Positions 11,501-31,534 are shown, numbered from the stretch's first letter. The stretch is 32,000 nucleotides of DNA from an archaeon GW2011_AR10 (GCA_000830275.1 CP010424.1:1140001-1172000); one strand, 5' to 3'. The notes: generated from the letters alone by a model not told the origin. Program-made: numbers and translations.

Positions 11501-11799
11501 CAGTGGGCGGGGTTACCGCAAAGGTTTCTGCTGCAATAGCTGCGGGCTTCAAGGAAGTGGTAATTCCAAAGGCAAACAAGGATGATGTTGTGCTGTCGAA
11601 AGAACAATTAAACAAAATAAATATTGTTGCGGTTTCAACTCTTTCAGAGGTTGTTGACAATGCATTCGTTAAATCCAAGAAAACAAATGTGCTGCTCAAG
11701 AACCTGGGCAAACTTTTCTCGCTTGAGGTGCCTTCCCTGCTTGAAGGCGAGCTCGGCAAGGGAATTGTAAAGGCAGGCTTTTTATCCAAGCAAAAGTAG
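8551..11799 (+). CDS. lonB: archaeal membrane-bound Lon protease (LonB), interrupted by an intein
   Basis: Walker A motif VLLVGPPGTGKSMLAQA. A two-helix TM insertion (IGFIVPIAMFLVSFVVW...VVFAATLIVVAFLFFGFAIGA) lies within the AAA+ module, as in LonB. The proteolytic domain has GDSASVSVATAVISAL (catalytic Ser) and VGGVTAKVSAA (Lys). The extein total of 653 aa is typical of LonB. Confidence 0.9.
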   Translation: MPSTSPKKKKIVSIKSTAEIEVPKRLVDQAIGQEQGVSIIKKAAAQKRNVLLVGPPGTGKSMLAQAMSEILPLSELKDILIYPNHDDPNTPKVVTVKAGQGKKIVDDARLESRTQEDSIRLIGFIVPIAMFLVSFVVWKLEWIPDVVFAATLIVVAFLFFGFAIGAQVRTKSTAVVPKLLVSNANKKVAPFIEATGARAGALLGDVRHDPLQCILPDQLVSLPNGKQVQASDLIDRFFGEEKKTENVLSKDEKFNVLSGLGQKFCYSNATVTKVFKRDYEGEIIELKTKKGYHIKVTPNHPVAVFSENAEVEFIEAAKIKAGYFSVAPEKLPIDVKSRLDDAKIVLLADILADGYIGNRNVQFKLRREFKVKKIESDITNAGLKFTKRLDGKNIRIDINSAEFVKWLNSIGAVCNRSKSIPSIIFDQTRESIELFIINYVSLDGYVSKQGQFELLSKELIPDFIPLLLKAGLKPNYRPRLDRGFKKGNLQPRITFQDVSFAQKYFKLTANPFHKKNLEKYLSKTAYHHVTFDDIIPVNFSLLEKFRDKTGLSKAKVHEEYYALNKSVKTSKSPTRQFLQEIVSKFMSITNDPELFGLRDVVQGTFSYDEIIEVNRVNYSGPVYNMTTSTGTYLVNLVLTHNSGGLGTPPHLRVEPGMIHRVNGGVLFLDEVATLSPKAQQELLTVMQEKKYPITGQSEMSSGAMTRTEPVPCDFVLVAAGNYEDIQKIHPALRSRIRGYGYEVYINQDMVDNAENRDKIIQFIAQEVKKDGKIPHFSAEAVESIIFEARRRASRKNKLTLRLRDLGGLIRAAGDIAKEKGQKAVEAQDVYEAKMSAKTLEQQMVTKMLEEKKDYDVYLFEGSAVGRVNGLAVSGDGDAGLVLPIEAEVAPASSKSEGKIIATGKLGEIAKEAVQNVSALIKKLSGKDVSEFDIHIQFLQTYSGVEGDSASVSVATAVISALEGIPIKQSLAMTGSLSVRGEVLPVGGVTAKVSAAIAAGFKEVVIPKANKDDVVLSKEQLNKINIVAVSTLSEVVDNAFVKSKKTNVLLKNLGKLFSLEVPSLLEGELGKGIVKAGFLSKQK
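9187..10473 (+). mobile_element. 429-aa intein with a LAGLIDADG homing-endonuclease domain inserted in lonB
   Basis: The N-junction is GDVRHDPLQ / CILPDQLVSLPNGK (Cys1, residue 213) and the C-junction is LVNLVLTHN / SGGLGTPPH (His-Asn then Ser+1, Asn at residue 641). Block B is VTPNHPV. Two LAGLIDADG-type motifs are present (LLADILADGYIG and INYVSLDGYVS). Removing it restores the contiguous LonB sequence DPLQ-SGGLGTPPHLRV. Confidence 0.85.
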
Positions 11800-17749: not shown

Positions 17750-17752
17750 GCC

Positions 17753-17840
17753 ATAGCAAACAGCTTATTTTTTGAACTTTTTATTTCTGTTTGCTAGATG
17801 CAAAACGCAATTTCAATGCTCAATTACTTAAGCGTTTTGC
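17753..17840. repeat. copy A of an ~88-bp long-range inverted repeat containing two 9-bp-stem hairpins
   Basis: Its reverse complement aligns to 31429-31516 at roughly 90% identity (about 8 mismatches or indels by hand alignment). The hairpins are AGCAAACAG-N23-CTGTTTGCT (17755-17795) and GCAAAACGC-N23-GCGTTTTGC (17800-17840). The second includes the rpiB stop codon and its last 5 codons. Confidence 0.85.
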
Positions 17841-18276
17841 CATGGATTGCGTCAATTTTTTTTACGCGCCTGCGGTGCCTTTCCTCTAAGCTAAAATCCG
17901 TGCCCAGAAAGGAGTCAACCATTTCCAGTGCTTCCTTTTCCTTGCTTACTCTTGCTCCCAGCGATAAAACATTTGCGTTGTTGTGCTCCCTCGCCATCCT
18001 TGCCATGTACTCGTTTGTTGCCAGAGCAGCCCGAATTCCTTTGACCTTGTTGGCTGCCATTGCAGTGCCAATGCCTGTTCCACACACAACAATGCCAATG
18101 CTTTTAGGGCTTTTAGCCACTTTTTCAGCCACTTTAACCGCGAAATCAGGGTAATCGCAGCTTTTCTCGCTGTCAGTGCCCTCATCCACGACCTCAAACC
18201 CTTTTCTTTTGAGGTGTTCTTTGATTTTTTCTTTCAGCCTGAAACCGGCGTGGTCTGCTCCAACGATGACGCGCAT
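17824..18276 (-). CDS. rpiB: ribose-5-phosphate isomerase B (RpiB/LacAB family)
   Basis: MRVIVGADHAGFRLKEKIKEHL...GIVVCGTGIGTAMAANKVKGIRAAL...AREHNNANVLSLGARV is the canonical RpiB sequence pattern, including the catalytic Cys in CGTGIG. Confidence 0.9.
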   Translation of the reverse strand: MRVIVGADHAGFRLKEKIKEHLKRKGFEVVDEGTDSEKSCDYPDFAVKVAEKVAKSPKSIGIVVCGTGIGTAMAANKVKGIRAALATNEYMARMAREHNNANVLSLGARVSKEKEALEMVDSFLGTDFSLEERHRRRVKKIDAIHGKTLK

Positions 18277-18351
18277 TCTTTCAACTGATTAATTTTTTAC
18301 TGGAAAACAATTTAAACAAATACATACATTCAATGTTTACGGGTGGGCTAA

Positions 18352-19074
18352 TTGATTGAACTGAAGAACACTTCCCCTTTAAGGAAGAGCATTGACGCCA
18401 TTTCAGCATTCATTTCAGAGGGAAACTTTCGCTTCAACGAGCAGGGCATTCACTTCAAGGCAATTGACCCGAGCCAGATTCTCCTCGTGAACCTTTTTAT
18501 GGACAAGAAGCACTTTGACTCTTTCAGCGTTGAGCCGACATTTGTCGGGGTTGATTTAGTGGAATTAAGCAAAATCATGGCTAGGAGCCTTCCAACCGAC
18601 AAGCTGAGAATAGATTTAACTGACTCTGAAATGAAGGTGAAGCTTGAAGGAGACTTCCACAGGAGCTTCAAGCTCCCATTAATTGATGTGAGCGAGGACG
18701 AAATAAACCTTCCAAGTAAAACCTATGATGCCTCTATTGAAATCAGCGCGCGCATAATGAAGGAAGCCTTGAAGGATGCTTCCTTGTTTGGTTCAAGCGT
18801 TATATTCAAAGTAAAAGGCAGCCAGTTTTTTGTTGAGGCGCGCGGCAGCCAAGGAACCCTGGATGCGGTTTCAAAGGAAACGAAGGGAATAAAAGTGAAG
18901 GCTTCAAAGGACGTAACTGCAAAATTTTCTCTTAACTTCCTGCAGAACATCATAAAAGAAGCAGACGCAGAGGAAAAAATTTTGCTTGAGCTGAAGACTG
19001 ACGCGCCAATGAAAGTTTCTTACAACATCGGCAAAAACAGGATTGAATTCTTTTTAGCCCACATGCTCCTATAA
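18352..19074 (+). CDS. DNA polymerase sliding clamp PCNA, paralog 2 (divergent)
   Basis: RKSIDAISAFISEGNFRFNEQGIHFKAIDPSQILLVNLFM...FKLPLIDV...MKVSYNIGKNRIEFFLAHM is collinear with paralog 1 at roughly one-third identity by eye. It has a TTG start and lacks the acidic C-terminal tail. Confidence 0.8.
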   Translation: MIELKNTSPLRKSIDAISAFISEGNFRFNEQGIHFKAIDPSQILLVNLFMDKKHFDSFSVEPTFVGVDLVELSKIMARSLPTDKLRIDLTDSEMKVKLEGDFHRSFKLPLIDVSEDEINLPSKTYDASIEISARIMKEALKDASLFGSSVIFKVKGSQFFVEARGSQGTLDAVSKETKGIKVKASKDVTAKFSLNFLQNIIKEADAEEKILLELKTDAPMKVSYNIGKNRIEFFLAHMLL

Positions 19075-19278
19075 ACGGAGAGGTCCGTTTACGACCTATA
19101 TGTGTGCCATCTTCGATGGCACGGTAATTTTGCTCCGTTCGGCTGAAACCTCAGCCGGCAAGGTGTGGAATACTCGTTTCACTCGTATTCCACTGGCTCG
19201 CTTCGCTCGCAAAACGGAGAGGTCCGTTTACGACCTATATGTGTGCCATCTTCGATGGCACGGTAATTTTGCTCCGTT
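19073..19278. repeat. two perfect 67-bp direct repeats (19073-19139 and 19212-19278) separated by a 72-bp hairpin-rich spacer
   Basis: AAACGGAGAGGTCCGTTTACGACCTATATGTGTGCCATCTTCGATGGCACGGTAATTTTGCTCCGTT occurs twice with no mismatch. Each copy contains the 8-3-8 palindrome GTGCCATC-TTC-GATGGCAC. Confidence 0.9.
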
Positions 19279-19299
19279 TACGAGGTGCGGCATCTTCGA

Positions 19300-19356
19300 T
19301 AACTGTTAAGGGATACGATTTTTAACTGTCAAGGAATACAATCTTAACTGTCAAGG
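19300..19356 (+). repeat. three tandem 22-23-bp repeats ending 15 nt upstream of the priL start
   Basis: TAACTGTTAAGG at 19300, TAACTGTCAAGG at 19323 and TAACTGTCAAGG at 19345, with related spacers (GATACGATTTT / AATACAATCT). Confidence 0.8.
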
Positions 19357-19370
19357 CAGGGGTTGTTGAA

Positions 19371-20405
19371 GTGTTTTCAGTGGAAGAACTTAGATTCGCG
19401 CAGAAGTACCCCTTTTCTTCAACTGCAAAAAGGGTTGTAAGGCAATCCAACCTTTCACTGGGAGAACTTCCAGTGGAAGTAATTGAAAGAGCGGAGGTGC
19501 TGGTGCGCAATGCACTCCAAGGCATTGAATATAAAGCCAACGTTGTTTCCTCCCAGGGATTACTATTAAACGAAGTGCTTGCATTTCCAGTTGCAAAAAT
19601 TATTGTTTCATGTATTGGAAAAGATGAAGCGATAAGAAAGTTTTCTGTGCTGATTGCTGCCAATACTTTGAGGCACTTGGAGGCAGAGCAACCTGAAACG
19701 CTTTTTGCGATTGCAGCTGACCTAAGCATAAGATTTGATCTCTCTGAAGGGGGGCAGGAGTTTGCAAGGGTTGTTCTCCCTGATTTTTTGGCAGCTGGAA
19801 CAAAGGACGAGTTCATGAAGCTTGTGAACAAGAAAGTCGAAAAAGGAAAGGTTGTTTTGAGCCGTGCATCATTTGAAAAATTTTTGTCCTATGCGGTTGA
19901 AAAAAATGTTTTAAGCTCACTTCCAGTGGATGTTACCGGTATTCCAAAAAATTTTGGAGAAATTTCCAGGCGGCTTTATAGTGGAGCAGTAGAGCAGCAG
20001 AAAAAGCAGTTCGAGGGCATTCCATCCGGGAAAGTTAAACCAGAGTTTTTTCCGCCATGCTTTAAAAGGCTCTACAGTGACATATTGGTTGGCAAAAAAC
20101 TCGGCCACATTGAAAGGTTCAACCTTGCAACTTTCCTGCTTGCAGTCGGAATGCCGCAGGAGAGAGTGATTGACTTATACAAGGCCACTCCAAACTTTGA
20201 CGAGAACACAACAAGGTATCATGTGGCGAGGCTGGCTGGCCGTTCAGGCAAACAGTACTCTGCTTCGAGTTGTTCCAAGCTGGCAGAGTACGGCTTAAGG
20301 TTGCCTGACTGCCCCTGCAATGCAAGCACAAAAATAAAGCACCCGCTGCAGGTTTACCGTAAAGCATTTTCCGAGAAAGACTCACCAACCCAAAATGAAG
20401 CCTAG
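19371..20405 (+). CDS. priL: DNA primase large (regulatory) subunit PriL
   Basis: FPPCFKRLYSDI...HIERFNLATFLLAVGMPQERVIDLY...TRYHVARLAG...YSASSCSKL...CPDCPCN is the PriL Fe-S cluster domain pattern (Cys ligands plus the conserved helix). The start is GTG. Confidence 0.85.
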   Translation: MFSVEELRFAQKYPFSSTAKRVVRQSNLSLGELPVEVIERAEVLVRNALQGIEYKANVVSSQGLLLNEVLAFPVAKIIVSCIGKDEAIRKFSVLIAANTLRHLEAEQPETLFAIAADLSIRFDLSEGGQEFARVVLPDFLAAGTKDEFMKLVNKKVEKGKVVLSRASFEKFLSYAVEKNVLSSLPVDVTGIPKNFGEISRRLYSGAVEQQKKQFEGIPSGKVKPEFFPPCFKRLYSDILVGKKLGHIERFNLATFLLAVGMPQERVIDLYKATPNFDENTTRYHVARLAGRSGKQYSASSCSKLAEYGLRLPDCPCNASTKIKHPLQVYRKAFSEKDSPTQNEA

Positions 20406-20498
20406 CTATTTATGGCGGGTTTTTTGCCCGGCTTCATTTTCCGTTGACGGTAAATTGACGTCCATTGGGAAACCTTGCACTTCAGTGTGGGGAGGACG

Positions 20499-23237
20499 TC
20501 ACTTGCTTAATGCTTTTTTGAGGGATAATTCAATGTATGGGACAAGAGCGCTTGCACTGCTCAAACCTAAAACCACCAGCCAGTCAACTGCGTTTAATGG
20601 CACGGTTTTGAGAACGTTAACAGTGCTTGCGTCAATTTCTTGGTTAATTGCCGTTGCAAGGTTAGGCCCGTAAACAACAAGCAACTGTAGTGCAAAGGAA
20701 ACCAGAACCATTTTAACCAAAAACTTGTTGCTGAAAGGGCTCAATTCTAATATGCCTTTGCCTTCCCCCCTGCAGCTGAAAACAAGGAAAAGCTCGAACA
20801 CAACCAGTGTTGTGAAGGCCATTGTTCTGGCCTTGCTTTCAAAATCGAACCCTTCCTTTGATGAGAGCTCTTCAAGGGAAATTCCTGCAAGTTCATCTGA
20901 CTGGAGGCCGTAAAAGAACGCAGCGAAAGTTACAATAGTTGCAATTATTCCTGCAATTACAATGAAGGTCTTTGTTCCATCAAGCACTCCTTCTTTTGTT
21001 GGGCGGGGCTTTTTCTCCATAACCTCTTTTTCTGATTCATCTGTGCCAAGGGCAAGTGCAGGCAAGGCATCAGTTGCAATGTTCAGCCACAGTATCTGCA
21101 ATGGAAGCAAAGGCAGTGCCCGGTTTGCAAGCGTTGCAATAGTTATAACTGCCACCTCCCCAATGTTTGCAGCAAGAAGGTACTTCACGAAGTCCTTGAT
21201 GTTTTTGTAGACCCGTCTGCCCTCCTTCACTGCTATAACGATTGTTGAAAAGTTGTCGTCCTTTAAGATCAAGTCAGAGGCTCCCTTCGTTACATCAGTT
21301 CCCTTAATTCCCATTGCAATGCCGATGTCAGCGCGCTTAAGCGCCGGCGCATCATTCACCCCATCGCCTGTTACCGCTACAATTTCCCCTGATTCCTCTA
21401 ATGCCTCAACTATTCTGAATTTGTGTTCCGGGCTGACTCTGGCAAAAACAGTGTTTTCTTGCACGGCCTTTGTGAATTCTGTTCCATTAAGCCTGTCAAG
21501 TTCCTGGCCTGTAACAACGTTTCCCGCGAGGCCAATTCTTTGCGCAATAGCATATGTGGTTGCAGGGTTGTCCCCAGTAATTATTTTGACTTTAATGCCG
21601 GCCCGCTGTGCCAGTCTTATTGCTTCAGGCACCTCCTTTCTTGGGGGGTCTTTCAGTGCAGCAAATCCCACAAAAACCATGCTGCTTTCAATTTCCTTGT
21701 TTTCATCTTTTTTTAGCTCCTTGAACGCGAAACCAAGAATGCGGTATGCGTCCCCTGCAAGTTTTTCGGATGTTTCAAGGATTTCCTTTTTCCTCTGCGC
21801 TGTAAGGTTTTTGATTTTTCCGTTTTCCTGCACCGAGCCGCTTATTGAAAGGATTACTTCAACAGCTCCCTTCGAGTAAGCAACCCGTTTGCCATTTACC
21901 TCGTGGATGGTTGTCATCATTTTTCTGGCTGAATCAAACTGTATTTCGTTCACGCGCTGCAAATTCCTTGTTATGCCTGCTTTTCTAGCCATCACTGCAA
22001 GTGCGCCCTCTGTGGGGTCACCAACAATTTTGAATGAGGTTCCATCAATTACCAGTGAAGAGTCATTGCATTCAGCTGAAATCTCGAGAAGCTTTTTCAG
22101 CTCCGCTTCCCCTGCTGCAGAAATTTTTTTTCCTTCTGCGATGAACTCTCCTAACGGTTCATACCCCTTGCCAGTGACCTCTACAACCCGGTTGTTTACG
22201 AATAATTTCTCTGCAACCATTTCATTCCTTGTGAGGGTTCCTGTTTTGTCAGAGCATATGACTGTTGTTGAGCCAAGCGCTTCAACTGAATGCATTCTTC
22301 TTACAAGCACGTTTTGTTTTGCCATCTGCAGCACGCCAATGCCAAGTGTTATCGTGATTACAACAGGCAGCCCCTCAGGAATTGCTGCAACCCCCAAGCT
22401 TACTGCCACTTTGAACATTTCGTGTGGGTCATTGCCGTACAGGGTGCCAACAGCAAACAGCACAACAATTATTGCCGAAATTATTTTTACCAAAGTTTTT
22501 GACAGCAGCCTAAGTTTTCGCGTTAGCGGCGTTTCCTCTTCTTCCAGCTCCCTGATCATTCCCGCTATTCGCCCGAACTCTGTTTTCATTCCCGTTGCAG
22601 TCACAATGCCCTTGCCCCTGCCGTGAGTTACAATTGTGTTGGAAAAAGCAGTGTTGAACCTTTCAGCAATGGGTTTCTCTCCAGCAATTGCTTCAGCAAA
22701 CTTTTTTGCCGGCGAGCTTTCACCTGTTAGAACTGCTTCGTCTATTTCTAAGTTTACTGCCTCGATAAGCCTTAAGTCAGCCGGCACCTTGTCACCGGTC
22801 TGCAGCATAACAATGTCTCCGGGCACTATTTCTGCGGCGTCAATTTCATGAATTTTGCTGCCTCTAACCACTGTTGCTTTCAGCGCCGTCATTTTCTTGA
22901 GTGCCTCCAGCGCTTTTTCTGCCTTGAACTCCTGCATGAAGCCAAGAGCTGCGTTAATAACGAGTATCACGAATATTGCAACTGCTTCAAGGACATCTCC
23001 AGTGAGCAAAGAAATTATGCCGGCAATTATCAGCACTACTACAAGCAGCCCCTTGAACTGATTCAGGAAAAGTTTAAGTGCTGAAAACTTTTTTGCTTCC
23101 TCGAGTTTATTCAAGCCAAAGCTCCCGGCTCTTTTTTTTGCTTCCCCCAAGCTTAAACCGTTCTCGCCTGAATTTAAATCGCGCAAAACAGCCTCAAACT
23201 CTTCGTTGTAAAACTTTTTTTCTACGGCCTCAGGCAT
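20499..23237 (-). CDS. cation-transporting P-type ATPase, P2 (Ca2+-ATPase-like)
   Basis: Motifs present: TGESSP, the TM4 motif IPEGLPVVITITL, the phosphorylation site CSDKTGTLTRN, TGDNPATT and VTGDGVNDAPALKRADIGIAMG. The 912-aa protein has about 10 TM helices. Confidence 0.9.
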   Translation of the reverse strand: MPEAVEKKFYNEEFEAVLRDLNSGENGLSLGEAKKRAGSFGLNKLEEAKKFSALKLFLNQFKGLLVVVLIIAGIISLLTGDVLEAVAIFVILVINAALGFMQEFKAEKALEALKKMTALKATVVRGSKIHEIDAAEIVPGDIVMLQTGDKVPADLRLIEAVNLEIDEAVLTGESSPAKKFAEAIAGEKPIAERFNTAFSNTIVTHGRGKGIVTATGMKTEFGRIAGMIRELEEEETPLTRKLRLLSKTLVKIISAIIVVLFAVGTLYGNDPHEMFKVAVSLGVAAIPEGLPVVITITLGIGVLQMAKQNVLVRRMHSVEALGSTTVICSDKTGTLTRNEMVAEKLFVNNRVVEVTGKGYEPLGEFIAEGKKISAAGEAELKKLLEISAECNDSSLVIDGTSFKIVGDPTEGALAVMARKAGITRNLQRVNEIQFDSARKMMTTIHEVNGKRVAYSKGAVEVILSISGSVQENGKIKNLTAQRKKEILETSEKLAGDAYRILGFAFKELKKDENKEIESSMVFVGFAALKDPPRKEVPEAIRLAQRAGIKVKIITGDNPATTYAIAQRIGLAGNVVTGQELDRLNGTEFTKAVQENTVFARVSPEHKFRIVEALEESGEIVAVTGDGVNDAPALKRADIGIAMGIKGTDVTKGASDLILKDDNFSTIVIAVKEGRRVYKNIKDFVKYLLAANIGEVAVITIATLANRALPLLPLQILWLNIATDALPALALGTDESEKEVMEKKPRPTKEGVLDGTKTFIVIAGIIATIVTFAAFFYGLQSDELAGISLEELSSKEGFDFESKARTMAFTTLVVFELFLVFSCRGEGKGILELSPFSNKFLVKMVLVSFALQLLVVYGPNLATAINQEIDASTVNVLKTVPLNAVDWLVVLGLSSASALVPYIELSLKKALSK

Positions 23238-23403
23238 GTAATTAATTACAGTTCAGGTGTATAAAAACATTTCAATCGCAAAACTTTCGTTAATCGATTA
23301 AAAAATAGAAAATTTTTTGAAATGCAAACGCTTAAATAGTTCCTCGTGCAAAATACTTTTGCAAAAATAATTTTTTTTGTAAAAAATGGTGGGAGGTAAT
23401 GTG

Positions 23404-23466
23404 ATGGCAGCAAAAAAGAAATCATCTTCAAGAAAATCAAGCAGCAGATCTAAATCTAGAAGATAA
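23404..23466 (+). CDS. candidate micro-ORF encoding a 20-aa Lys/Ser/Arg-rich peptide (MAAKKKSSSRKSSSRSKSRR)
   Basis: GGGAGGT (23391-23397) lies 6 nt upstream of the ATG. An in-frame alternative ATG is at 23386. An A/T-rich TATA-like stretch (23364-23385) lies upstream, and a hairpin plus T-tract follows directly downstream. The ORF is too short to judge by composition. Confidence 0.35.
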   Translation: MAAKKKSSSRKSSSRSKSRR

Positions 23467-23483
23467 GCGAATTTTTTGATTTT

Positions 23484-23520
23484 TGGCAGGGTCTTGCACC
23501 CTGTCATTTATCTTTTATTT
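23484..23520 (+). terminator. hairpin plus T-rich tract downstream of the micro-ORF
   Basis: TGGCAGGGT-CTTGC-ACCCTGTCA forms a 9-bp stem including one G-U pair, followed by TTTATCTTTTATTTTC. Confidence 0.4.
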
Positions 23521-23595
23521 TCTATCCTGTTTGTCAAAAACCGTACAATGAATTGAGCGGCATGGTTTTTACCTATAAAACGGTTTTTGACAGTA

Positions 23596-23823
23596 GTAAT
23601 TCCACTCCACTGTTTCCAGCGAAGCTGCGTTTTCGCAAACCTCCTCGTAAAACCTTTGGTTTTGCCGAAGGCAATTTTTCGCAAGCCTCCTTGCAAAACC
23701 TTTGGTTTTGCGAGACCCGCAAAATCTATGATTTTGCTTGGGTTTCCTAAAAGGCTTTATGTGGCCCGCAAAATCTATGATTTTGCTTGGGTTTCTTAAA
23801 AGGTTTTAAAACGGTGGAATTAC
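23596..23823. repeat. MITE-like 228-bp element: 10-bp perfect terminal inverted repeats enclosing two internally duplicated units
   Basis: The terminal inverted repeats (TIRs) are GTAATTCCAC (23596-23605) and GTGGAATTAC (23814-23823). Unit A occurs twice (23630-23665 and 23676-23711, 33/36 identical). Unit B occurs twice (23716-23754 and 23765-23803, 38/39 identical). Unit B also occurs inverted at 7229-7255. Confidence 0.7.
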
Positions 23824-23827
23824 CTGA

Positions 23828-23836
23828 TTTAAAATT
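23828..23836 (+). promoter_or_regulatory. TATA-box candidate for the priS operon
   Basis: ATTTAAAAT is centred 26 nt upstream of the ATG at 23858. Confidence 0.4.
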
Positions 23837-23857
23837 TCTTCCATTAATTAATTTTTA

Positions 23858-25084
23858 ATGAACGAAGCCGTTTTCTTGCGCGAAAAGTTCCGCGAATACT
23901 ATGAGCAAAATAAGGTTAGCGGTCCATCCGGCATTAGCCAGCGAGAATTCGGCGTTGGAGAGTTCGGCAAAAAGATTACCTCAAGGCACCTTTCTTTTTC
24001 AAGTGCAGATGAATTCAACTCTTTTTTGAGGAACAATGCGCCGCTTTTCATTTCTCACTCTTTGGGCTACTATGCTTTTCCTTCCGCTAGACCGATGAAC
24101 GCAAAGGAGCTGCTGAAGGCCGACTTGATTTATGAGTTTGACGCAGATGACCTCAAGACAGAGTGCAAGAAAAGCCATGACTCCTGGTTTTGCGGCAACT
24201 GCGGTTCAACAGGAAAAGGAAACGTATCCAATTGCTCGAAGTGTGGTGCAGGGGTTGAGGTGGACGAATGGGTTTGCCCGGACTGCTTAAAAGCAGTCAA
24301 AGCGCAGGTGTTCAAGTTAATGGAATTTCTGGAGGAAGACTTCGGGGTGAGCGAAGGGATTTCGCTGAATTACAGTGGAAGCAAGGGCTTTCACATTCAC
24401 ATTTCTGACGAAAATTTTTCCAAGCTGTCACCGCAGGCAAGGGTTGACTTAGTGGATTACCTTACAGCTTACCAGATTGATCCAGTTAGCCTTGGGTTTT
24501 TCCTCTCAAAGCAGAAAAAGTTTGTTTGCCCGCCTCCTGGGGTTGCAGCAGGATGGCAAAAAAGAATTCTTAATGGCGTAGAGGCCTTGTTTGAGCGCGG
24601 TTCATTCGAGGAAATTGCAGTTGCGGGAAACGTGACAACGGCATCAGCCAAACAGTTATTAAATGAAAGGAGCACAATTTTGAGCAAGCTGGCTGAAGGG
24701 GTTTTGTTTCAGCTGCCTGGAAAGAAGACTGAAGGTTTCTGGAATTCAGTCATCGAGTATGTTGTAAAATTGCAGCGCCTGGACATTGACAGGCAGACCT
24801 CAGTTGACATAAGCAAGATAATCAGGGTGCCGGACACGCTTCACGGCTCTACTGGTTTGGTCGCAAAAACAATTCCCTTCCAAGAGTTCAAAGAATTCGA
24901 GGCATTAAACAGTGCGGTTGTGTTCGGTGGGGAAGAAATAGTGGTGCAAGTTGCGAAAACTCCGAAGTTTTTTTTGCATGGCGAGTGGTGGGGGCCATTT
25001 GATGGAGAGAAAGCAGGGCTGCCAGAGTTTGTTGCAGTCTACCTTATCGCAAAATCAAAAGCCCATATTGTTAGTGGAGTTTGA
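23858..25084 (+). CDS. priS: DNA primase small (catalytic) subunit PriS
   Basis: The catalytic acidic motif is LIYEFDADD. The Zn-knuckle is CGNCGS...CSKCG...CPDC. SGSKGFHIHI and RVPDTLHGSTGL are the conserved archaeo-eukaryotic primase (AEP) motifs. Confidence 0.9.
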   Translation: MNEAVFLREKFREYYEQNKVSGPSGISQREFGVGEFGKKITSRHLSFSSADEFNSFLRNNAPLFISHSLGYYAFPSARPMNAKELLKADLIYEFDADDLKTECKKSHDSWFCGNCGSTGKGNVSNCSKCGAGVEVDEWVCPDCLKAVKAQVFKLMEFLEEDFGVSEGISLNYSGSKGFHIHISDENFSKLSPQARVDLVDYLTAYQIDPVSLGFFLSKQKKFVCPPPGVAAGWQKRILNGVEALFERGSFEEIAVAGNVTTASAKQLLNERSTILSKLAEGVLFQLPGKKTEGFWNSVIEYVVKLQRLDIDRQTSVDISKIIRVPDTLHGSTGLVAKTIPFQEFKEFEALNSAVVFGGEEIVVQVAKTPKFFLHGEWWGPFDGEKAGLPEFVAVYLIAKSKAHIVSGV

Positions 25085-25089
25085 CTGGA

Positions 25090-25650
25090 ATGGATCTTTC
25101 ATTTGACGAAATAAGGCGGATTCACAGGCTTGAAAAGAACACCTCGCAGTTGGTGGAAGTTGAAAAGGAATTCTATAATGAACTGCATGCCTTTCTCCAA
25201 AAGGAAAAGCAGGCATACCTTGAATCGCTGAAAGATTTTTCTGTTTCAGATACCCGCAGGTTTTCAAACCTCAAGAAAATGGTTGAAGAAATATTTTCAA
25301 TGCGTGAAAAAAAGCTTTTGAACAAGGCGCTGATTGCAAGTCGGACAAAAGAAGCCAGTGAAGAGCACATGGCGTTGCAGGAAAAGGAGCTCTTCAAAAA
25401 AATGCTTGAACTGCTTGAAGAGCATGGTGCGCTGCTCAACGGATTATTTGAAAATGAGGCAGCAGAGAAGAAGCCATCTAAAGATTTAAATAATCTTTCA
25501 GTGAGAATTCTTTCAGACATTCCCGAGTTTGTAGGCTCTGACATGAAGGAGTATGGTCCTTACCGGAAAGGGCAAAAAGTTGCCATTCCCCTCAAAATTG
25601 CGAAACTGCTTGAGTCAAGGAAACTCGGTGAAGTTGTTAGGGAGGGCTGA
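25090..25650 (+). CDS. GINS subunit (Gins51/Gins15-type)
   Basis: An alpha-helical N-domain (DEIRRIHRLEKNTSQLVEVEKEFYNEL...REKKLLNKALIA) is followed by a C-terminal B-domain (VRILSDIPEFVGSDMKEYGPYRKGQKVAIPLKIAKLLESRKLGE). The position immediately after priS is a known archaeal linkage. An alternative TTG start at 25081 overlaps the priS stop. Confidence 0.6.
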   Translation: MDLSFDEIRRIHRLEKNTSQLVEVEKEFYNELHAFLQKEKQAYLESLKDFSVSDTRRFSNLKKMVEEIFSMREKKLLNKALIASRTKEASEEHMALQEKELFKKMLELLEEHGALLNGLFENEAAEKKPSKDLNNLSVRILSDIPEFVGSDMKEYGPYRKGQKVAIPLKIAKLLESRKLGEVVREG

Positions 25651-25652
25651 AA

Positions 25653-25847
25653 ATGTCCAGAAAAGCATCTGTTCCAACCCAGAAAACAAAGTTTTTAAGA
25701 GTTAAATGCCCTGCCTGCGGCAACGAGCAAACCATTTTCAGTTCAGCAACCACCAAGGTGAAGTGCCTTGCATGCAACCATTTGCTCGCTGAAACCGGCG
25801 CCTCAAAAATCAAGCTTAAGACAAAGGTTTTGAAAGTATTCGGTTGA
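25653..25847 (+). CDS. rps27e: 30S ribosomal protein S27e
   Basis: FLRVKCPACGNEQTIFSSATTKVKCLACNHLLAETGASK is the C4 zinc-ribbon of eS27. The protein is 64 aa. The SD-like GGGAGGG lies upstream. Confidence 0.9.
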   Translation: MSRKASVPTQKTKFLRVKCPACGNEQTIFSSATTKVKCLACNHLLAETGASKIKLKTKVLKVFG

Positions 25848-25852
25848 TTTAA

Positions 25853-26623
25853 ATGCCTGACCTGCCGGAAGTTGGAGAAATAGTGGTGTGCAAGATAACA
25901 AAAATCCTTGATTACGGGGTTTTCACCGAGCTTTCAGAATACAACAGCATTCAGGGCTTTGTCCACATTAGCCAGGTTAGCAGTAGCTGGGTGAAAAACA
26001 TCAGGAACTTTGTCAAGGAAAACCAGTTGAGGGCAGCGCAAGTACTAAACATTGACACCCAAAAAAACCAGATTGATTTGTCCTTTAACAAGGTTTCAGC
26101 TGGTCTGCAGAGGGCAAAAATAGAGGAATGGAAGCAGGCGAAGAGAAGCCAGAAACTCATTGAAGTGCTTGCAAAGCAGAACAACACAAGCTTTGACGCT
26201 GCATGGAAGGAAGTTGCAGAGCCGCTTCTAGAGAAATATGAAACCCTCTATGACGCTTTTCAGGGAGTACTGCTTGAAAAAGAGCCAGCGCTTAGCGGCA
26301 TTGACAAAAAATGGGTTAAACCGCTGGTTGAATTGGTTGAAAAAAACATTGAAGTGCCCACCAAAACAGTTAAAGGCGTTTTAACTCTTTCCAGCAGTGC
26401 CTATAACGGGGTTGAGCTGATTAAGTCCGCGCTGATGCAGGCCCAGAGCGTTTCAAAGGATGCAGAAATCGACATATACTATGTCGGGTCCGGCAAGTAC
26501 ATGGTGAAAGTCAGCTCATTCGACTACAAGGTTGCTGAAAGGGTTTTAAAGCAGGTAGGCGAGACAGCAATTGATTCAATAAAAGCAGCAAAGGGCTTTG
26601 GGGACCTTTCAAGAATGAATTAA
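25853..26623 (+). CDS. eif2a: translation initiation factor 2 alpha subunit (aIF2-alpha)
   Basis: PEVGEIVVCKITKILDYGVFTELSEYNSIQGFVHISQVSSSWVKNIRNFVKENQ is the N-terminal S1 domain typical of a/eIF2-alpha. The 256-aa length fits. Confidence 0.9.
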   Translation: MPDLPEVGEIVVCKITKILDYGVFTELSEYNSIQGFVHISQVSSSWVKNIRNFVKENQLRAAQVLNIDTQKNQIDLSFNKVSAGLQRAKIEEWKQAKRSQKLIEVLAKQNNTSFDAAWKEVAEPLLEKYETLYDAFQGVLLEKEPALSGIDKKWVKPLVELVEKNIEVPTKTVKGVLTLSSSAYNGVELIKSALMQAQSVSKDAEIDIYYVGSGKYMVKVSSFDYKVAERVLKQVGETAIDSIKAAKGFGDLSRMN

Positions 26624-26624
26624 A

Positions 26625-27410
26625 GTGATGCCAATGAAAACAAGAGTAAAATTTTTGAAGAACATTAAGCTAAGAAACCCGGTTCTTTTTACTGGCCTGC
26701 CCGGAATAGGGCTTGTCGGAAAAATTTCTGTTGACTATCTTTTGAAGCAGTTGAAGGCGCAGAAAATTGCAGAGGTTTTTTCTGATTCTTTTCCGCCCAG
26801 TATTCACACAAAGGATGGAGTAATAAACATGATAAAGGATGAAATATTCCTCTACTCTTTTAAGGACAGGGATTATCTTTTCCTTGCAGGGCCAGTGCAG
26901 CCAGCACTTGATATCAGGAGCAGTTCAATGGCCGAGCACTATGAGTTTGCTGAAGCAATAATGGACTCTCTGAAAGCAAAAGGGTTAAAGGAAGTTTACA
27001 CGCTTGCAGGAATCAACATCGGGGAGAAAAGAATGCTTTCAGAGCCGAACGTGATCATTGCTGCAACCGACAAGAACATTTTGGCTGAGTGGAAAAAGTT
27101 TGGAGCGGTAGGCGACAGGCCCGAGGGCCTTATAAGTGGTGCAGCTGGCCTCATTCTTGGCGTTGCAAAAGAGAACGGAATTAGTGGAGCGTGTCTGATG
27201 GGTGAAACCAATGCAAGATTAGTTTATGGAGACCACGGTGCAGCAAAGAACGTGCTTGAATTGCTGATTAAAAAATACGGGTTCAAAGTGGACATGAGCA
27301 GAATTGAAAAGGAAGCAAAAGAAATCGAATCAGCTTTCACGCAATTAGCGAAACAGTTTGAAGACCAAGAAGAAAAACCCGCGGAACATGGTCTCAGTTA
27401 CGTCAGATAA
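26625..27410 (+). CDS. PAC2-family proteasome assembly chaperone-like protein
   Basis: RNPVLFTGLPGIGLVGKISVDYLLKQL...LFLAGPVQP...GISGACLMGET matches the archaeal PAC2/PbaA-like pattern. The start is ambiguous (GTG 26625, ATG 26628 or ATG 26634). Confidence 0.65.
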   Translation: MMPMKTRVKFLKNIKLRNPVLFTGLPGIGLVGKISVDYLLKQLKAQKIAEVFSDSFPPSIHTKDGVINMIKDEIFLYSFKDRDYLFLAGPVQPALDIRSSSMAEHYEFAEAIMDSLKAKGLKEVYTLAGINIGEKRMLSEPNVIIAATDKNILAEWKKFGAVGDRPEGLISGAAGLILGVAKENGISGACLMGETNARLVYGDHGAAKNVLELLIKKYGFKVDMSRIEKEAKEIESAFTQLAKQFEDQEEKPAEHGLSYVR

Positions 27411-27530
27411 AACGCTGTTCTTGTAATAGGGGTCTATCGATTAAGCAGGCAATGATGTTACCACATAATCAGCAAATTCTTTAATCAAAAAGAAGAAGGG
27501 ATAAAAAACTGCACAAGGAATTGTTATAAT

Positions 27531-28469
27531 ATGGACACTGTTGACACCCAAATTCTGCGCATAATGGGCTTAAGGCCTTATGGGCAGCTTCCACAGGACA
27601 TGAATGGTTTCAAACCAGCATATATCGCCAAAAAAATAGGCTTAGAACCAAAAACAGTGAAGGCGCGCATACAACGCCTCAAAGAAAGTGGCCTTATCAG
27701 TTTTTACCAGCTTTACCCAAACTTTAACCACCTAGAAGTCAATGGCTCTGCATACCTTTTTAACGTAAAGGAGCAGGACCAAAAACCAAAAATAATTAAG
27801 CGAATAGAAATGGTTGGCGAACTCTTGGAAGTTCATGATTTTTTGGGAAAAGAATTGTGTGTTGACATTGGATACCATACCAATTACGATTTGGATAAAA
27901 AAATCGGATTGCTTCGCGAGTTCACGGGCGACGCAAAACCAATTTGTTTTTATCACAGGCATATGCCTAAAGTTAACAGAAAGCTTTCATTGCTTGACTG
28001 GCGCATACTCAAGACACTCCGCTACAACGCACTGCAATCACCGGCAACTGTTGCAGCACAACTAAAAATCAGTTTGAAAACAGCAAAAAGAAGGATTGAA
28101 AGAATGGGCAAGGAAGGAAGTTTTTTCATTGTTCCTGCACTTGACCCAAGCAAGGCAATTGGCCTTGTGTTATTTGAACTTCTTGTTTACACAAATCAAA
28201 GCGTGAACAATTCTTCAATACAGCAAATTCTGCAAACAACAAAAGACCACTATGTTTACCATTATATTCCTGCTTCAAGTGCTCTTGGAAACTTTGACCT
28301 TATTTTGTTTGTAGACTCGATAGGAAAAATAGAGGAATTAAGGCAAAAAGTAAGCAAAATCAACGGGGTTGCAAAAACCAATGCACTAATATTCCAAGGA
28401 TGGCACGATTTTACTGGATGGATTGATTCTGCCATTGAACAAAAAATAAGCTCGTTGTCCAAAACCTGA
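27531..28469 (+). CDS. transcriptional regulator with two tandem Lrp/AsnC-like winged-HTH modules
   Basis: The first module is DTQILRIMG...YIAKKIGLEPKTVKARIQRLKESGLI and the second is LDWRILKTLRYNALQSPATVAAQLKISLKTAKRRIERMGKEGSF. Each is followed by about 80 aa of a possible effector-type domain. Confidence 0.55.
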   Translation: MDTVDTQILRIMGLRPYGQLPQDMNGFKPAYIAKKIGLEPKTVKARIQRLKESGLISFYQLYPNFNHLEVNGSAYLFNVKEQDQKPKIIKRIEMVGELLEVHDFLGKELCVDIGYHTNYDLDKKIGLLREFTGDAKPICFYHRHMPKVNRKLSLLDWRILKTLRYNALQSPATVAAQLKISLKTAKRRIERMGKEGSFFIVPALDPSKAIGLVLFELLVYTNQSVNNSSIQQILQTTKDHYVYHYIPASSALGNFDLILFVDSIGKIEELRQKVSKINGVAKTNALIFQGWHDFTGWIDSAIEQKISSLSKT

Positions 28470-28584
28470 AAAGCTAATTCTTAAAACGGACAAATTTTCC
28501 AAAAACCTGACCAAAACCGGTTTTTTGGTTTCCGGCAATTTTAGAAAGCACCTTAACAGAAAGAATAACAGAGGTGAATGAATT

Positions 28585-29139
28585 ATGAACGGAAAAATAA
28601 ACGGAATTGATGTGAATACATTGAATTCGACAATTGAAGCAGTAAAACAAAACCCTGTTTTGGCAAAATGCACTTTTAGCACGCACACGGTCTGGAAAAA
28701 GGGTTTTCAAAACCAAACAGAAATAAGCAGCTTTGTGCAAGCAGGAGAAACAGTCAATCGTGGTAAAACATTCAAATTAGGCGGAGACCATCCGGAAGTT
28801 CTTTTAGGGCAAAACACTGCGCCAGCAGCAGTTGAAACCCTTATTGCGGCAACTTCTGCCTGCATTGCGGGAGGATGGGCAACTTTTGGGGCAGCAATGG
28901 GCGTCCAACTAGATTCACTAAAAATCGACCTAGAAGGAGACATTGACCTGCAGGGATTCATGGGAACGAACAACAAAGTCAAGCCAGGGTTAAACAAAAT
29001 CAGGGGAAAAATTTTCGTAAAAAGCCATGCAAGCGACAAACAGCTACAAGAACTAAAAGAAATGGCGGAAAAAATGTCACCCGTGGTTAATTCACTAAAA
29101 GTGCCAGTACAAACAGAATTAGTTCACGTAAAGAATTAA
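28585..29139 (+). CDS. OsmC/Ohr-family peroxiredoxin-like protein
   Basis: GGDHPEVLLGQNTAPAAVETLIAATSACIAGGWA...KIDLEGDIDLQGF fits the OsmC-family layout with the conserved Cys. The SD GAGGTGA lies 9 nt upstream of the ATG. Confidence 0.7.
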   Translation: MNGKINGIDVNTLNSTIEAVKQNPVLAKCTFSTHTVWKKGFQNQTEISSFVQAGETVNRGKTFKLGGDHPEVLLGQNTAPAAVETLIAATSACIAGGWATFGAAMGVQLDSLKIDLEGDIDLQGFMGTNNKVKPGLNKIRGKIFVKSHASDKQLQELKEMAEKMSPVVNSLKVPVQTELVHVKN

Positions 29140-29445
29140 ACAGAAAAAAGTTGTGCCGGTGCCAGGGTGTAACTCCTATGCATGCCGGAGCAAAAATTTA
29201 TTTCCAATGCTATCAATACTCTTTGATGGGATTAGAAATTTGGCAGCTCCGGCAATGCAAAGTTGTTTCTCTGACTGATTAATTTCAATTGCTGTAATCC
29301 TATCACGTTTGAGCAAAAGGAAAATACCCCGGGAAAAATAAAGAATCCGCCTAAAAACCGTTAATTTTTAAGCATCACCATCATACGATACATACGGCAA
29401 TGATGAAGTGAAAACCGGTTTTAGTCGGTGGTTTTTAATAGTCGT

Positions 29446-30717
29446 TTAGAATTCTCCCAAAGTTTTCTGGCCGCTGACTTGGCTTGCATTAATATCTTTT
29501 TCAAGAATTTCTTTTCTTGAGTCAAACTCCTCCTTTGAGTCGCAGATTATTGGTTTGCCGTAGTTTCCGCCGCCCCCGGGAATGTAGAGTACAAGCCCTT
29601 CCCGGAATGCCTTCACTTTTTTTGCCACTTCCTGGTTTACTTCATTCAACTCCTCTTCTTCCGCGTCAACCAATACATTTATTTCGTTGCCGAACCTTTC
29701 CACGAAATCCATCCAAGTGCTCTGCACTTTCTGCGAGTTTATGTTGTTAACGCCAAATGCGGCTTGGATTATTTCAGCTAAGGGCAGCGAATGCATGTAA
29801 GGCGGCCTGAAGTCAGGGTGCGTTTCTTCCTTGAAATCAGCCAGCTCCTCAATCCTGTCCCGCACGCCTTTCTTGATTGCTCCCCTGCACTTCATGCACT
29901 TCCAGTTAAGCTGGTTTGCCTGCTCAGCTGAGTACTTTGTGAAGCAGGCATTGCAGGCAGATAGATGGTATTTTCCTTCCTTTGGGTTCAATCCAACATT
30001 CAAGGTAATGAGTTTTTCCTGTTTTCTTTCAAACGCCTTCCTTATTTCCTTGAAGCTGGGTTCCTTCAGCTTCATTCTAGTGAACTCTCTTCCAATGCGG
30101 TGAGGCCAAGGACTGTGGGCATCAGAGCTAGTGAGAAAAGAATACGAGTGGTTTTCTTCAATCAAGTCTGCAAGCGCCGAGTCAGCGCTCAATCCAAGCT
30201 CAATGAATGAAATGCTTTCAGCCATTCCCCCATAAGCTTTCCTGACCGAGTCATGGTGTGCATAAATTCCAGTATAAGGCGTGAAAGAGTGCGCTGGCCC
30301 AATGATGCCTTTGGCTTCCTCAACATTTTCAGCTATCTGCTCTGCGTTAAGCCTCAGCACTGGCCTTCCGCACATAGCGCAGTCAAGGTTGCCGAACCCA
30401 ATCAATTTCTCGCGGAGTTGTTCTGCAGCAGAAAAGTCAGGCAAGTAAATAAGGTGATGTGCCCTGTCCTTTGATTCAACCTCGGTTCCAACAACAAAAA
30501 AGCATTTGCTGTTTTTGTCGGAGAAAACGCCGTTGCTTTCTTCCACAATGCCCTGCTTTACGTGCTCGAACCACTTTTTGTGGAGGATATCAGCACTGGA
30601 AACAGCGTCAATGCCCTTAAGTTTAGCCTGCTCCGCAATTATCGGCACAAGCATGTTTTTGCTTACTCCGCCAGCGTAAACGCCGTGCAACTGAAGGTCA
30701 AGGTTGAATTCCTTCAT
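29446..30717 (-). CDS. endonuclease Q-like protein (PHP-type domain plus Zn finger; TIGR00375-like)
   Basis: The N-terminus is LDLQLHGVYAGGVSKNMLVPIIAEQAKLKGIDAV...ADILHKKW. Also present are AHHLIYLP, GPAHSFTP, SSDAHSPW and the C-terminal Zn finger CNACFTKY...WKCMKCRG. The 423-aa length is close to characterised EndoQ. Recognition is from memory of the family. Confidence 0.55.
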   Translation of the reverse strand: MKEFNLDLQLHGVYAGGVSKNMLVPIIAEQAKLKGIDAVSSADILHKKWFEHVKQGIVEESNGVFSDKNSKCFFVVGTEVESKDRAHHLIYLPDFSAAEQLREKLIGFGNLDCAMCGRPVLRLNAEQIAENVEEAKGIIGPAHSFTPYTGIYAHHDSVRKAYGGMAESISFIELGLSADSALADLIEENHSYSFLTSSDAHSPWPHRIGREFTRMKLKEPSFKEIRKAFERKQEKLITLNVGLNPKEGKYHLSACNACFTKYSAEQANQLNWKCMKCRGAIKKGVRDRIEELADFKEETHPDFRPPYMHSLPLAEIIQAAFGVNNINSQKVQSTWMDFVERFGNEINVLVDAEEEELNEVNQEVAKKVKAFREGLVLYIPGGGGNYGKPIICDSKEEFDSRKEILEKDINASQVSGQKTLGEF

Positions 30718-30740
30718 TCAATCCCCTATTAATTATAGCA

Positions 30741-30825
30741 GGCGACATTAATTTTTGAACATTTATTGTCGCCTGATAGATAGCAAATGACCTTGTTTTG
30801 TTCAAATATTTTTGTCATTTGCTAT
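30741..30825. promoter_or_regulatory. two adjacent inverted repeats whose AT-rich loops contain TATA-like cores
   Basis: AGGCGACA-N19-TGTCGCCT spans 30741-30775. Its loop on the minus strand reads ATAAATGTTCAAAAATTAA, about 35 nt upstream of the EndoQ-like ATG. TAGCAAATGAC-N22-GTCATTTGCTA spans 30782-30825. Its loop contains GTTCAAATATTTTT and it is followed by TATATATTAATATAAAAAA. Confidence 0.5.
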
Positions 30826-30920
30826 ATATTAATATAAAAAAGAATTAATATTTGGAGTATTGGGGAGTTTGGTAATATTTGGAGTATTTGGGTTTTTGGT
30901 AACGGCTGGTAAGCTGCATG

Positions 30921-31244
30921 CTATATTGGCATGTTGAAGAACTTTAGTATGAGTATTGCCCCTACTCCTGCCAAACCGAAGATGGCAGAAATTACTATTG
31001 TTGGAATAAGCTGCAGCTCAATTTTTAACACGAACACCATCACTGCCCAAGCGATAAGGCCGAGCGCTGAGTTAACAATTATTTTTTTGAGGTGAATGAG
31101 AATAAGTACCGCTGCAATAATTAGAATGAAGCCGATCACGAGAATCTGCCAGTTTCCCGCGAGCTGCTGTGTTATGTCGTTTGCTGTCTGGGAAGCGCCT
31201 TCAATTGCGCTGCCTTCCAGCGCCTGCAAAAACAAACCCTGCAT
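30921..31244 (-). CDS. BofA-like small integral membrane protein
   Basis: The 107-aa protein has 2-3 TM helices. KKIIVNSALGLIAWAVMVFVL...IPTIVISAIFGLAGVGAILILKFF resembles the BofA-family C-terminal pattern (INLVTTAISGILGIPGIAALVVIK). Confidence 0.45.
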   Translation of the reverse strand: MQGLFLQALEGSAIEGASQTANDITQQLAGNWQILVIGFILIIAAVLILIHLKKIIVNSALGLIAWAVMVFVLKIELQLIPTIVISAIFGLAGVGAILILKFFNMPI

Positions 31245-31267
31245 AAGTATGCCTTTTTTATTCTATG

Positions 31268-31377
31268 GCGAATGACATTAATAATTAAACATTTATTGCT
31301 CATTTGCTATATGTAAAAGACAATATATTTTGCCATATGTAAAAGACAATTATTTTCCAAACAAGAATGTCTTTTAC
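31268..31377. promoter_or_regulatory. inverted repeats and direct repeats in the divergent promoter region
   Basis: An imperfect inverted repeat, GCGAATGAC-N21-GCTCATTTGC, spans 31268-31307. A 16-nt direct repeat, ATATGTAAAAGACAAT, occurs at 31309 and 31335. The hairpin GTAAAAGACA-N19-TGTCTTTTAC spans 31339-31377 and is followed by TATATTATATTAA. Confidence 0.45.
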
Positions 31378-31428
31378 TATATTATATTAAGCTTATCAAT
31401 ATTATACTGTTTTGGTTTTATATTTATA

Positions 31429-31516
31429 GCAAAACGCTTAAGTAATTGAACATTGAATTGCGTTTTGCATCTAGCAACCAGCAGCATAAAGTTCAAAAAT
31501 ATAAGCTGTTTGCTAT
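31429..31516. repeat. copy B of the ~88-bp long-range inverted repeat
   Basis: GCAAAACGCTTAAGTAATTGAACATTGAATTGCGTTTTGCATCTAGCAACCAGCAGCATAAAGTTCAAAAATATAAGCTGTTTGCTAT matches the reverse complement of 17753-17840. It includes a relic of the rpiB 3' end (KTLK-stop) with no ORF attached. Confidence 0.85.
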
Positions 31517-31534
31517 ACTTCAATAGGTGAGTTT

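Follow-up and report, generated by a model that had tools for sequence, protein, structure and literature searches.

A probable TA-duplicating miniature transposable element behind an inverted repeat pair in the genome of the archaeon GW2011_AR10

In this study, we analysed a 32,000-nt stretch of the genome of the archaeon GW2011_AR10 (CP010424.1:1140001-1172000; hereafter, the window), a Candidatus Diapherotrites (Iainarchaeota; DPANN) archaeon from Rifle-type groundwater, in which an initial annotation had described an inverted repeat pair, copies A and B, bracketing a 13.6-kb segment. Copies A and B are probably two insertions of an 89-bp non-autonomous DNA transposon, a miniature inverted-repeat transposable element (MITE) of the kind that duplicates a TA target, and the 13.6-kb segment is merely the DNA between two insertions. 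The element belongs to a previously uncharacterised MITE family that is dense in DPANN archaea and spans several phyla.

The inverted repeat pair itself was confirmed. Local alignment placed 17753-17843 (plus strand) against the reverse complement of 31516-31426, with 7 mismatches and 2 single-base indels over 91 positions (about 90% identity). The BLAST comparison of copy A with copy B gave an E-value of 7.7e-23, far past chance, and a repeat finder independently reported the pair (I3 + I5). Delimited by its alignment to copy B, copy A (17754-17842, plus strand, 89 nt, TAGC...GCCA) fills the gap between the convergent genes pcna1 and rpiB. Copy B (31427-31515, minus strand, 89 nt, TAGC...GCTA) is inverted relative to copy A and is flanked by TA at 31425-31426 and 31516-31517; it has no gene attached, as described earlier, and 18-19 nt separate its end from the downstream GTG start (31535) of an MJ0538-like winged-helix gene. 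A chimeric contig join is excluded as the cause of the pair, since ten independent assemblies cross junction A and ten cross junction B, all with identical gene order.

Both copies contain perfect stems of 9-10 bp enclosing loops of 22-23 nt. In copy A, stem 1 is formed by TAGCAAACAG and CTGTTTGCTA (17754-17763/17787-17796), and stem 2 by GCAAAACGC and GCGTTTTGC (17800-17808/17832-17840). The stems of copy B lie at 31429-31437/31460-31468 and at 31472-31482/31505-31515, the latter counted as 11 bp with one mismatch. The differences between the copies are located mainly in the loops, as had been noted: loop 1 holds three mismatches and one indel, loop 2 holds one of each, and the remaining mismatches fall at a loop/stem edge, in a stem, and in a terminal GCTA. 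The two-hairpin fold proposed in the initial annotation stands insofar as its stems are present in both copies, but it is not the sole fold. In both strands of copy B and in the minus strand of copy A, a single long imperfect hairpin that joins the ends is the structure of minimum energy, and the two folds are about equally stable. The folding z-scores range from -3.3 to -6.3.

Each copy is a doublet of two palindromic units of about 45 nt, a (+) unit followed by a (-) unit, with a total length of 89 nt and no open reading frame (ORF). The unit has the form TA-TAGC(A/G)A-nnn-C, followed by an A/T-rich loop of 19-23 nt, often holding TTTGAAC, and then by G-nnn-T(T/C)GCTA-TA. The termini of the doublet are TAGCAAA...TTTGCTA. 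Because the two palindromic units are arranged head-to-head, the terminal motif TAGCAAAnnGC (about 11 nt) occurs four times per doublet in alternating orientation. The terminal inverted repeats, TAGCAAACAGC and the reverse complement of GCGTTTTGCTA, match at 9 of 11 positions; imperfect identity reaches about 24-25 nt, and in copy B these ends are base-paired when the minimum-energy structure forms.

Copies A and B are not a unique pair: a copy census over about 55 kb of this genome found a third full copy and a total of about 20 related units. A covariance model built from 36 palindromic units detected exactly eight units in the window, all of them intergenic. Two of these make up copy A (17752-17796, plus strand, 48 bits; 17798-17844, minus strand, 44 bits) and two make up copy B (31425-31470, plus strand, 52.7 bits; 31472-31517, minus strand, 54.2 bits). 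The other four form two doublets of a second subfamily. One of these doublets (30736-30824, plus strand) is again 89 nt long, with TA at 30734-30735 and 30825-30826 and perfect stems of 9 and 12 bp; its units lie at 30734-30778 (plus strand, 57 bits) and 30781-30826 (minus strand, 63 bits). The other (31262-31381, plus strand) carries about 27 extra nt between its units (31264-31309, plus strand, 54.6 bits; 31337-31381, minus strand, 31.6 bits) and is 86% identical to locus L011 2238-2306. In the flanking DNA, 9-10 further units occur in the 10 kb to the right of the window and three in the 10 kb to the left. The third full copy, copy C (L011 4532-4624), is located 5.2 kb past the window end on the same contig; it is 94.5% identical to copy B, in direct orientation relative to it, and has partial and diverged copies nearby. 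Thus, at least two subfamilies are present in this genome, with three full copies of subfamily I and at least three doublets of subfamily II.

Evidence for insertion comes from the surroundings of copy C. A paralogue of the copy C array, about 95% identical, lies elsewhere on the same contig (L174 11461-11640) and lacks copy C. Alignment of L011 4400-4720 with L174 11445-11680 revealed a single clean gap of 91 nt. The filled site reads GCGAC-TA-(TAGCAAACAG...GCGTTTTGCTA)-TA-GCGAATGAC; at the empty site, the sequence is GCGAC-TA-GCGAATGAC. When the empty site was reconstructed from the filled one (45 nt + TA + 45 nt), it matched L174 11527-11618 with 96.7% identity over all 92 nt. In this one case, at a CTAG site, filled and empty sites differ by the 89-nt element plus one TA. 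This is the trace expected of a duplicated TA target site, and the element is accordingly read as a MITE of the TA-duplicating kind. In agreement with this, copy B, copy C, and the doublet at 30736-30824 all have a length of exactly 89 nt and a TA on either side, and TA flanks all units examined except those of copy A.

The superfamily may be IS630/Tc1-mariner-like or Correia-like. CTAG/TA is the classical target of IS630 elements, and the IS630/Tc1-mariner type is therefore the most likely; since some elements of an IS5 subgroup also make duplications of 2-3 bp, this assignment is one that we infer from the target. A transposase supplied in trans, most likely a DDE enzyme of the IS630/Tc1-mariner type, would bind the terminal motifs, excise the element, and integrate it at a TA, which would be duplicated in the process. 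Because resident copies are flanked by TA and have A/T-rich loops, new copies would tend to land beside or inside old ones. Arrays may have grown in this way, by insertion at the TA flanks and in the A/T-rich loops of resident copies, until they filled intergenic gaps. Since copy B and two other doublets lie 17-20 nt from start codons, the adjacent genes would have to be transcribed through the element or from a promoter within its A/T-rich loop.

The insertions are old relative to the population. The copies are 90-95% identical to one another and are fixed in the sampled population, in which strains differ by only about 0.5%; L011 and L012, for example, are 99.5% identical and hold the same units. 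A divergence of 5-10% between copies, set against about 0.5% between strains, indicates that these insertions are not recent. A scan of metagenome contigs recovered two further pieces of sequence that fit this organism, both of them short (L133 and L165).

Several observations weigh against the transposon interpretation. A search of about 170 loci for an ORF of at least 220 aa between matching termini 0.8-2.6 kb apart recovered neither an autonomous element nor a cognate transposase, and the only transposase fragment nearby is a DDE_Tnp_1 fragment in an element whose ends differ. The TA duplication rests on a single filled/empty pair, which consists of paralogous repeats, together with the TA flanks. 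The population assemblies showed no insertion polymorphism, the element being fixed in all of them. Copy A is flanked by CA (17752-17753) and TG (17843-17844) where other copies have TA; these flanks and its terminal change from GCTA to GCCA fall within the rpiB reading frame. Finally, the stems covary strongly across subfamilies, and the loop motif ATTAATWTTYGNAC is conserved across phyla. The covariation and the conserved ATTAATWTTYGNAC exceed what a simple MITE needs and are suggestive of a function, either structural or for the host.

Two candidate partners were considered and rejected. The interval at L097 encodes FKBP and FtsZ instead of a transposase, and the DDE_Tnp_1 fragment at L174 lies inside an inverted repeat with different ends. 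That inverted repeat (AGACTTGTAGATAAA and its complement, L174 11683-13206) surrounds an Mrr-like restriction endonuclease gene and the 150-aa DDE_Tnp_1 fragment. It may be a decayed insertion sequence (IS) or a composite element, with ends unrelated to the hairpin units.

The relation between copy A and rpiB (17824-18276, minus strand; LacAB_rpiB domain) is probably also explained by insertion. The last six codons of rpiB (H G K T L K) and its TAA stop occupy 17824-17844 on the minus strand, where the second unit of copy A has its 5' arm and the beginning of its loop. As noted earlier, the 17-mer GCAAAACGCTTAAGTAA occurs in both copies and encodes the last codons and the stop (17824-17826) of rpiB in copy A. 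It consists of the 5' arm GCAAAACGC and the loop start TTAAGTAA, which is this subfamily's form of the loop consensus ATTAATAA. The initial annotation had seen a relic of rpiB in copy B. This proposal was not borne out, since the 17-mer is intrinsic to the element and is also present in copy C without an ORF. The C-terminus of RpiB is variable, its tail here is specific to this lineage, and the proteins of relatives stop earlier or have other ends: those of the closest relatives end in ...KIDRILG*, ...KKMEKK*, and ...KISLIEKIKK*, and the protein here in ...KIDAIHGKTLK*. Judging from these sequences, the simplest reading is that the rpiB frame continues into the element and terminates at the element's TAA, so that the element would supply the tail and not the reverse. 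In relatives whose RpiB is 66-72% identical, an unfiltered search found no unit in 32 kb of syntenic DNA, including the site at the 3' end of rpiB, although these genomes are too diverged to define the element boundaries. Only 3-39 nt separate rpiB from the next gene downstream in these relatives. The absence of units and the short gap indicate that copy A was gained in this lineage.

The distribution of the family was investigated with a degenerate unit pattern in GTDB, using one genome per species. The scan yielded at least 100 matches, this organism not being among those listed, and the figures from it apply among the matches listed. Most were in metagenome-assembled genomes (MAGs) labelled Woesearchaeota, Pacearchaeota, Nanoarchaeota, Iainarchaeum, or Micrarchaeota. 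Often, many loci were present per genome, with a stem variant specific to each genome, and a second hairpin was seen beside nearly every unit. With the covariance model, (+)(-) doublets with units 2-5 nt apart were found in about 38 cases and the reverse order never; an independent nhmmer pass also gave the (+)(-) order in 15 of 15 cases. At three inner stem positions, 97% of cells were paired and 45 double changes were counted, with the caveat that the search pattern had already imposed purine/pyrimidine complementarity on most rows. The 39 arrays that could be classified by gene context comprised 21 tandem, 9 divergent, and 9 convergent cases, and none lay inside an ORF. Distances from element to gene in other genomes ranged from 0 to about 1000 nt. 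The pattern had no match in the viral contigs of IMG/VR, and no match to the element was found in the plasmids of PLSDB. In Rfam, the window had no match at gathering thresholds, and the repeat regions had only chance-level hits at E <= 1. Full-text literature searches returned no description of this element family. In a 2024 census, one Woesearchaeal genome ranked among the most MITE-dense of archaea, and the family was left undescribed (PMC11602168).

A palindrome with similar ends was also seen in a MAG labelled Bdellovibrionales (CAZKXU01; L021, L030, L031, L033, L041, L064, and others). At least 14 contigs carry the near-perfect 45-nt palindrome TATAGCAAGTGACAGAATACCGTAGCGTTATTCTGTCACTTGCTA, which has the same 13-nt termini as the archaeal units, with a stem of about 18 bp and a short loop. 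It could represent a related bacterial element, mis-binned contigs, or coincidence.

One alternative is a REP/REPIN-like origin, which we regard as unlikely. The doublets would then have been moved as single-stranded DNA by a RAYT or an IS200/IS605-type tyrosine (HUH/Y1) transposase, or kept by a domesticated enzyme, and no true target duplication would be expected. Palindromic units, inverted doublets, and mosaic arrays are all features of REPINs and BIMEs. The stem covariation suggests that hairpin formation matters, and conservation across phyla would be expected under a vertically inherited enzyme. IS200/IS605 is moreover the commonest IS family in archaea according to a 2026 survey (PMC13343696). 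However, the symmetric TA, and a gain of the element plus exactly one TA, fit a staggered double-strand cut better than they fit duplication-free insertion on the 3' side of a target. The two hairpins have oppositely oriented loops, but recognition of IS200/IS605 ends is confined to one strand. Outside the stem, no GTAG-like 5' tetranucleotide is conserved, and the roughly 55 kb of this genome that were examined showed no Y1/RAYT gene.

It is quite improbable that selection maintains the doublets at these positions as a functional structured module, be it a small RNA, a bidirectional terminator, or a portable promoter/operator. The initial annotation had listed a duplicated structured RNA or terminator module among three possible readings. 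It was the nearest of the three in that a structured module has indeed been duplicated, but this module is better read as a small DNA transposon than as an RNA or terminator. The annotation had also proposed selection on structure. The stems do covary across subfamilies, although conserved arms with variable spacers would also be expected from terminal repeats that bind a transposase. Position speaks for a function at some sites: copy A sits exactly between convergent genes, and three doublets of the window lie 17-20 nt from the start codons at 30717, 31244, and 31535, with the A/T-rich loop some 30-40 nt ahead of the start. In other genes of this genome, a TATA-like box occupies a similar position, about 27-35 nt before the start codon. 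The low folding z-scores and the covarying stems also agree with a functional structure. On the other hand, the 21/9/9 gene context (2:1:1) matches random intergenic insertion, which argues against a dedicated role as terminator or promoter, and the wide range of gene distances elsewhere points the same way. The lack of any unit in the sampled syntenic DNA of relatives, including the pcna1/rpiB junction, and the lack of an Rfam match also tell against a conserved function. The A/T-rich stems, loops of 19-23 nt, and lack of a consistent U-tract do not resemble intrinsic terminators.

Several specific roles were considered and rejected. An intrinsic terminator is incompatible with the A/T-rich stems and long loops, and 9 of the 39 arrays lie between divergent gene starts. 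A portable promoter, though attractive within the window, does not hold as a general role, since gene distances vary in other genomes and the gene context is unbiased. The boxes or motifs required for attC sites, C/D or H/ACA small RNAs, and ORB origin boxes were absent on sequence inspection.

A broader possibility is that a DPANN-wide element, common to Iainarchaeota, Woesearchaeota, Pacearchaeota, and Micrarchaeota, is kept by a conserved, perhaps domesticated, trans-acting protein that reads the TAGCAAA arms and the loop motif ATTAATWTTYGNAC, and that these streamlined genomes have co-opted it as a portable promoter, terminator, or gene-end module. We hold this to be improbable. If true, such a maintained module would explain both the doublets 17-20 nt from start codons and the donated stop codon.

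The suggestion that copies A and B recombine, so that the 13.6-kb segment is invertible or was once inverted, is extremely unlikely. The copies are inverted and 90% identical, and inverted dispersed repeats can in principle mediate inversion. However, about 20 independent assemblies from several samples show a single orientation, although these are short-read assemblies, from which rare inverted molecules could escape detection. Some of them cover the whole segment from A to B, with order and orientation all alike. The order is also collinear in L121, a 519-kb contig of a relative with 66% RpiB identity, which reads MJ0043_C(+), PAC2(-), eIF2-alpha(-), S27e(-), GINS(-), priS(-), ATPase(+), priL(-), pcna2(-), rpiB(+), three extra genes, and pcna1(-). 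Two more relatives (70-72% RpiB identity) agree around rpiB, so that gene order and orientation at junction A are the same in all of these relatives. The shared order and orientation indicate that the present arrangement is ancestral, and a fixed inversion is effectively refuted. No recombinase domain was present in the neighbouring genes scanned (11.8-32 kb of the window), and the pair is one of several copies of a multi-copy repeat. The further suggestion of trans-antisense regulation between copies A and B found no support.

The neighbouring genes agree with their earlier naming. On the copy A side are pcna1, rpiB, and pcna2, and the region between the copies also contains priL, a P-type ATPase gene, priS, and the genes for GINS51, S27e, eIF2-alpha, PAC2, an HTH regulator, OsmC, a 423-aa MJ0043_C-domain protein, and a 107-aa membrane protein; the MJ0538-like winged-helix gene lies past copy B. 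The doublet at 30736-30824 sits between the stop of the 107-aa gene and the start (30717) of the 423-aa gene, and the doublet at 31262-31381 precedes the start (31244) of the minus-strand 107-aa gene by 18-20 nt. The two PCNA paralogues that flank rpiB are conserved across relatives. In the relatives, a DUF3368 + UPF0175 toxin-antitoxin-like pair and a gene of about 207 aa stand between rpiB and pcna1 (L121 10502-12049; L126 1328-2851). These genes are absent here, and the 89-nt element fills the gap.

Inteins were observed in two genes. The 423-aa MJ0043_C-domain gene (formerly called EndoQ-like; 29446-30717, minus strand) is intein-free in the window, and an 870-aa allele with a LAGLIDADG-endonuclease intein is present in other assemblies of the same population (L012 10531-13143; L017 1423-4035). 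Several contigs break at this polymorphism. The 1082-aa Lon-type protease (8551-11799) also has an intein, according to an Intein_splicing match in precomputed annotation. A 1621-aa CARDB-domain protein (2271-7136) contains cysteine-rich internal repeats of about 159-198 nt (families D1-D3 and D5). Many genes lack a Shine-Dalgarno sequence and carry a TTTAWAWW box whose centre is about 27 nt ahead of the start codon, as seen upstream of 8551, 20499-23237 (minus strand), 23858, and 1221-2132 (minus strand). This suggests that transcripts are mostly leaderless in this archaeon.

Other repeats are present nearby. Between pcna2 and priL, a perfect direct repeat of 67 nt occurs (19073-19139 and 19212-19278). 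One copy of it plus a 72-nt spacer rich in hairpins forms a 139-nt block that the window allele contains and that L003, L004, L006, and L007 lack; L001 shows a third length. A further, inverted copy of the 67-mer, 95% identical, occurs about 20 kb to the left of the window (L174 20348-20410). This repeat resembles a mobile or duplicating element of a second kind. A third repeat family consists of tandem units of 46-49 nt upstream of priS (23630-23805), with the hairpin GCAAAATC-TAT-GATTTTGC. An inverted copy of it (7211-7267, 93% identical) occurs downstream of the 1621-aa gene, at a distance of 16.5 kb, and related CCTTTTTTAAAAGG palindromes are found at L174 13240-13340 and L011 4800-4890.

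In sum, reading copies A and B as MITE insertions removes a false lead, namely an invertible cassette of replication genes. In its place stands a MITE family with a defined 89-nt double-hairpin architecture, dense in otherwise highly streamlined DPANN genomes. Such elements break assemblies and mislead inference based on repeats; they can reshape gene ends, as in the tail of RpiB, and may displace or donate promoters. The family may also give a concrete sequence to the MITE-density statistic reported for Woesearchaeota (PMC11602168).

Among known systems, the orphan Correia elements of Neisseria and IS630-derived MITEs come closest to the element, and REP/BIME and Rickettsia palindromic elements have individual traits in common with it. 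It shares with the MITEs of the IS630/Tc1-mariner type (Stowaway-like; MITEEc1/ERIC, Nezha) a TA duplication, short terminal inverted repeats, a non-coding sequence, and a multi-copy state, and the sole empty site seen is CTAG, as in IS630 targets. Unlike those MITEs, it has no IS630-family transposase with matching ends among the loci searched. It resembles the REP, BIME, and REPIN sequences of Enterobacteria and Pseudomonas, which are associated with RAYT, in its palindromic units of about 35-45 nt, inverted doublets, and mosaic intergenic clusters. It differs from them in its TA duplication and symmetric termini, in lacking a GTAG motif, in its loops of 19-23 nt (a few nt in REPs), and in the absence of a RAYT gene from the 55 kb surveyed. 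As in Rickettsia palindromic elements (RPE), a palindromic repeat overlaps a coding region and adds residues (the last six codons of RpiB and its stop); RPE lie in-frame within genes, whereas here the overlap is limited to the 3' terminus and no unit lies inside an ORF. The Correia elements of Neisseria (CREE/NEMIS) are MITEs of about 100-150 bp with terminal inverted repeats and a TA duplication. They occur in hundreds of intergenic copies, often abutting genes, and can form hairpins when transcribed; to our knowledge, they are orphans with no cognate transposase. A neisserial repeat carries a promoter (cited in PMC11602168). Like Correia elements, the element described here is small, TA-duplicating, multi-copy, and intergenic, with terminal inverted repeats, hairpin folds, and no transposase assigned to it. 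Unlike them, it resides in DPANN archaea, shows no sequence similarity to them, and extends over several phyla rather than one genus, and each of its halves is itself a hairpin, so that the terminal motif is present fourfold.

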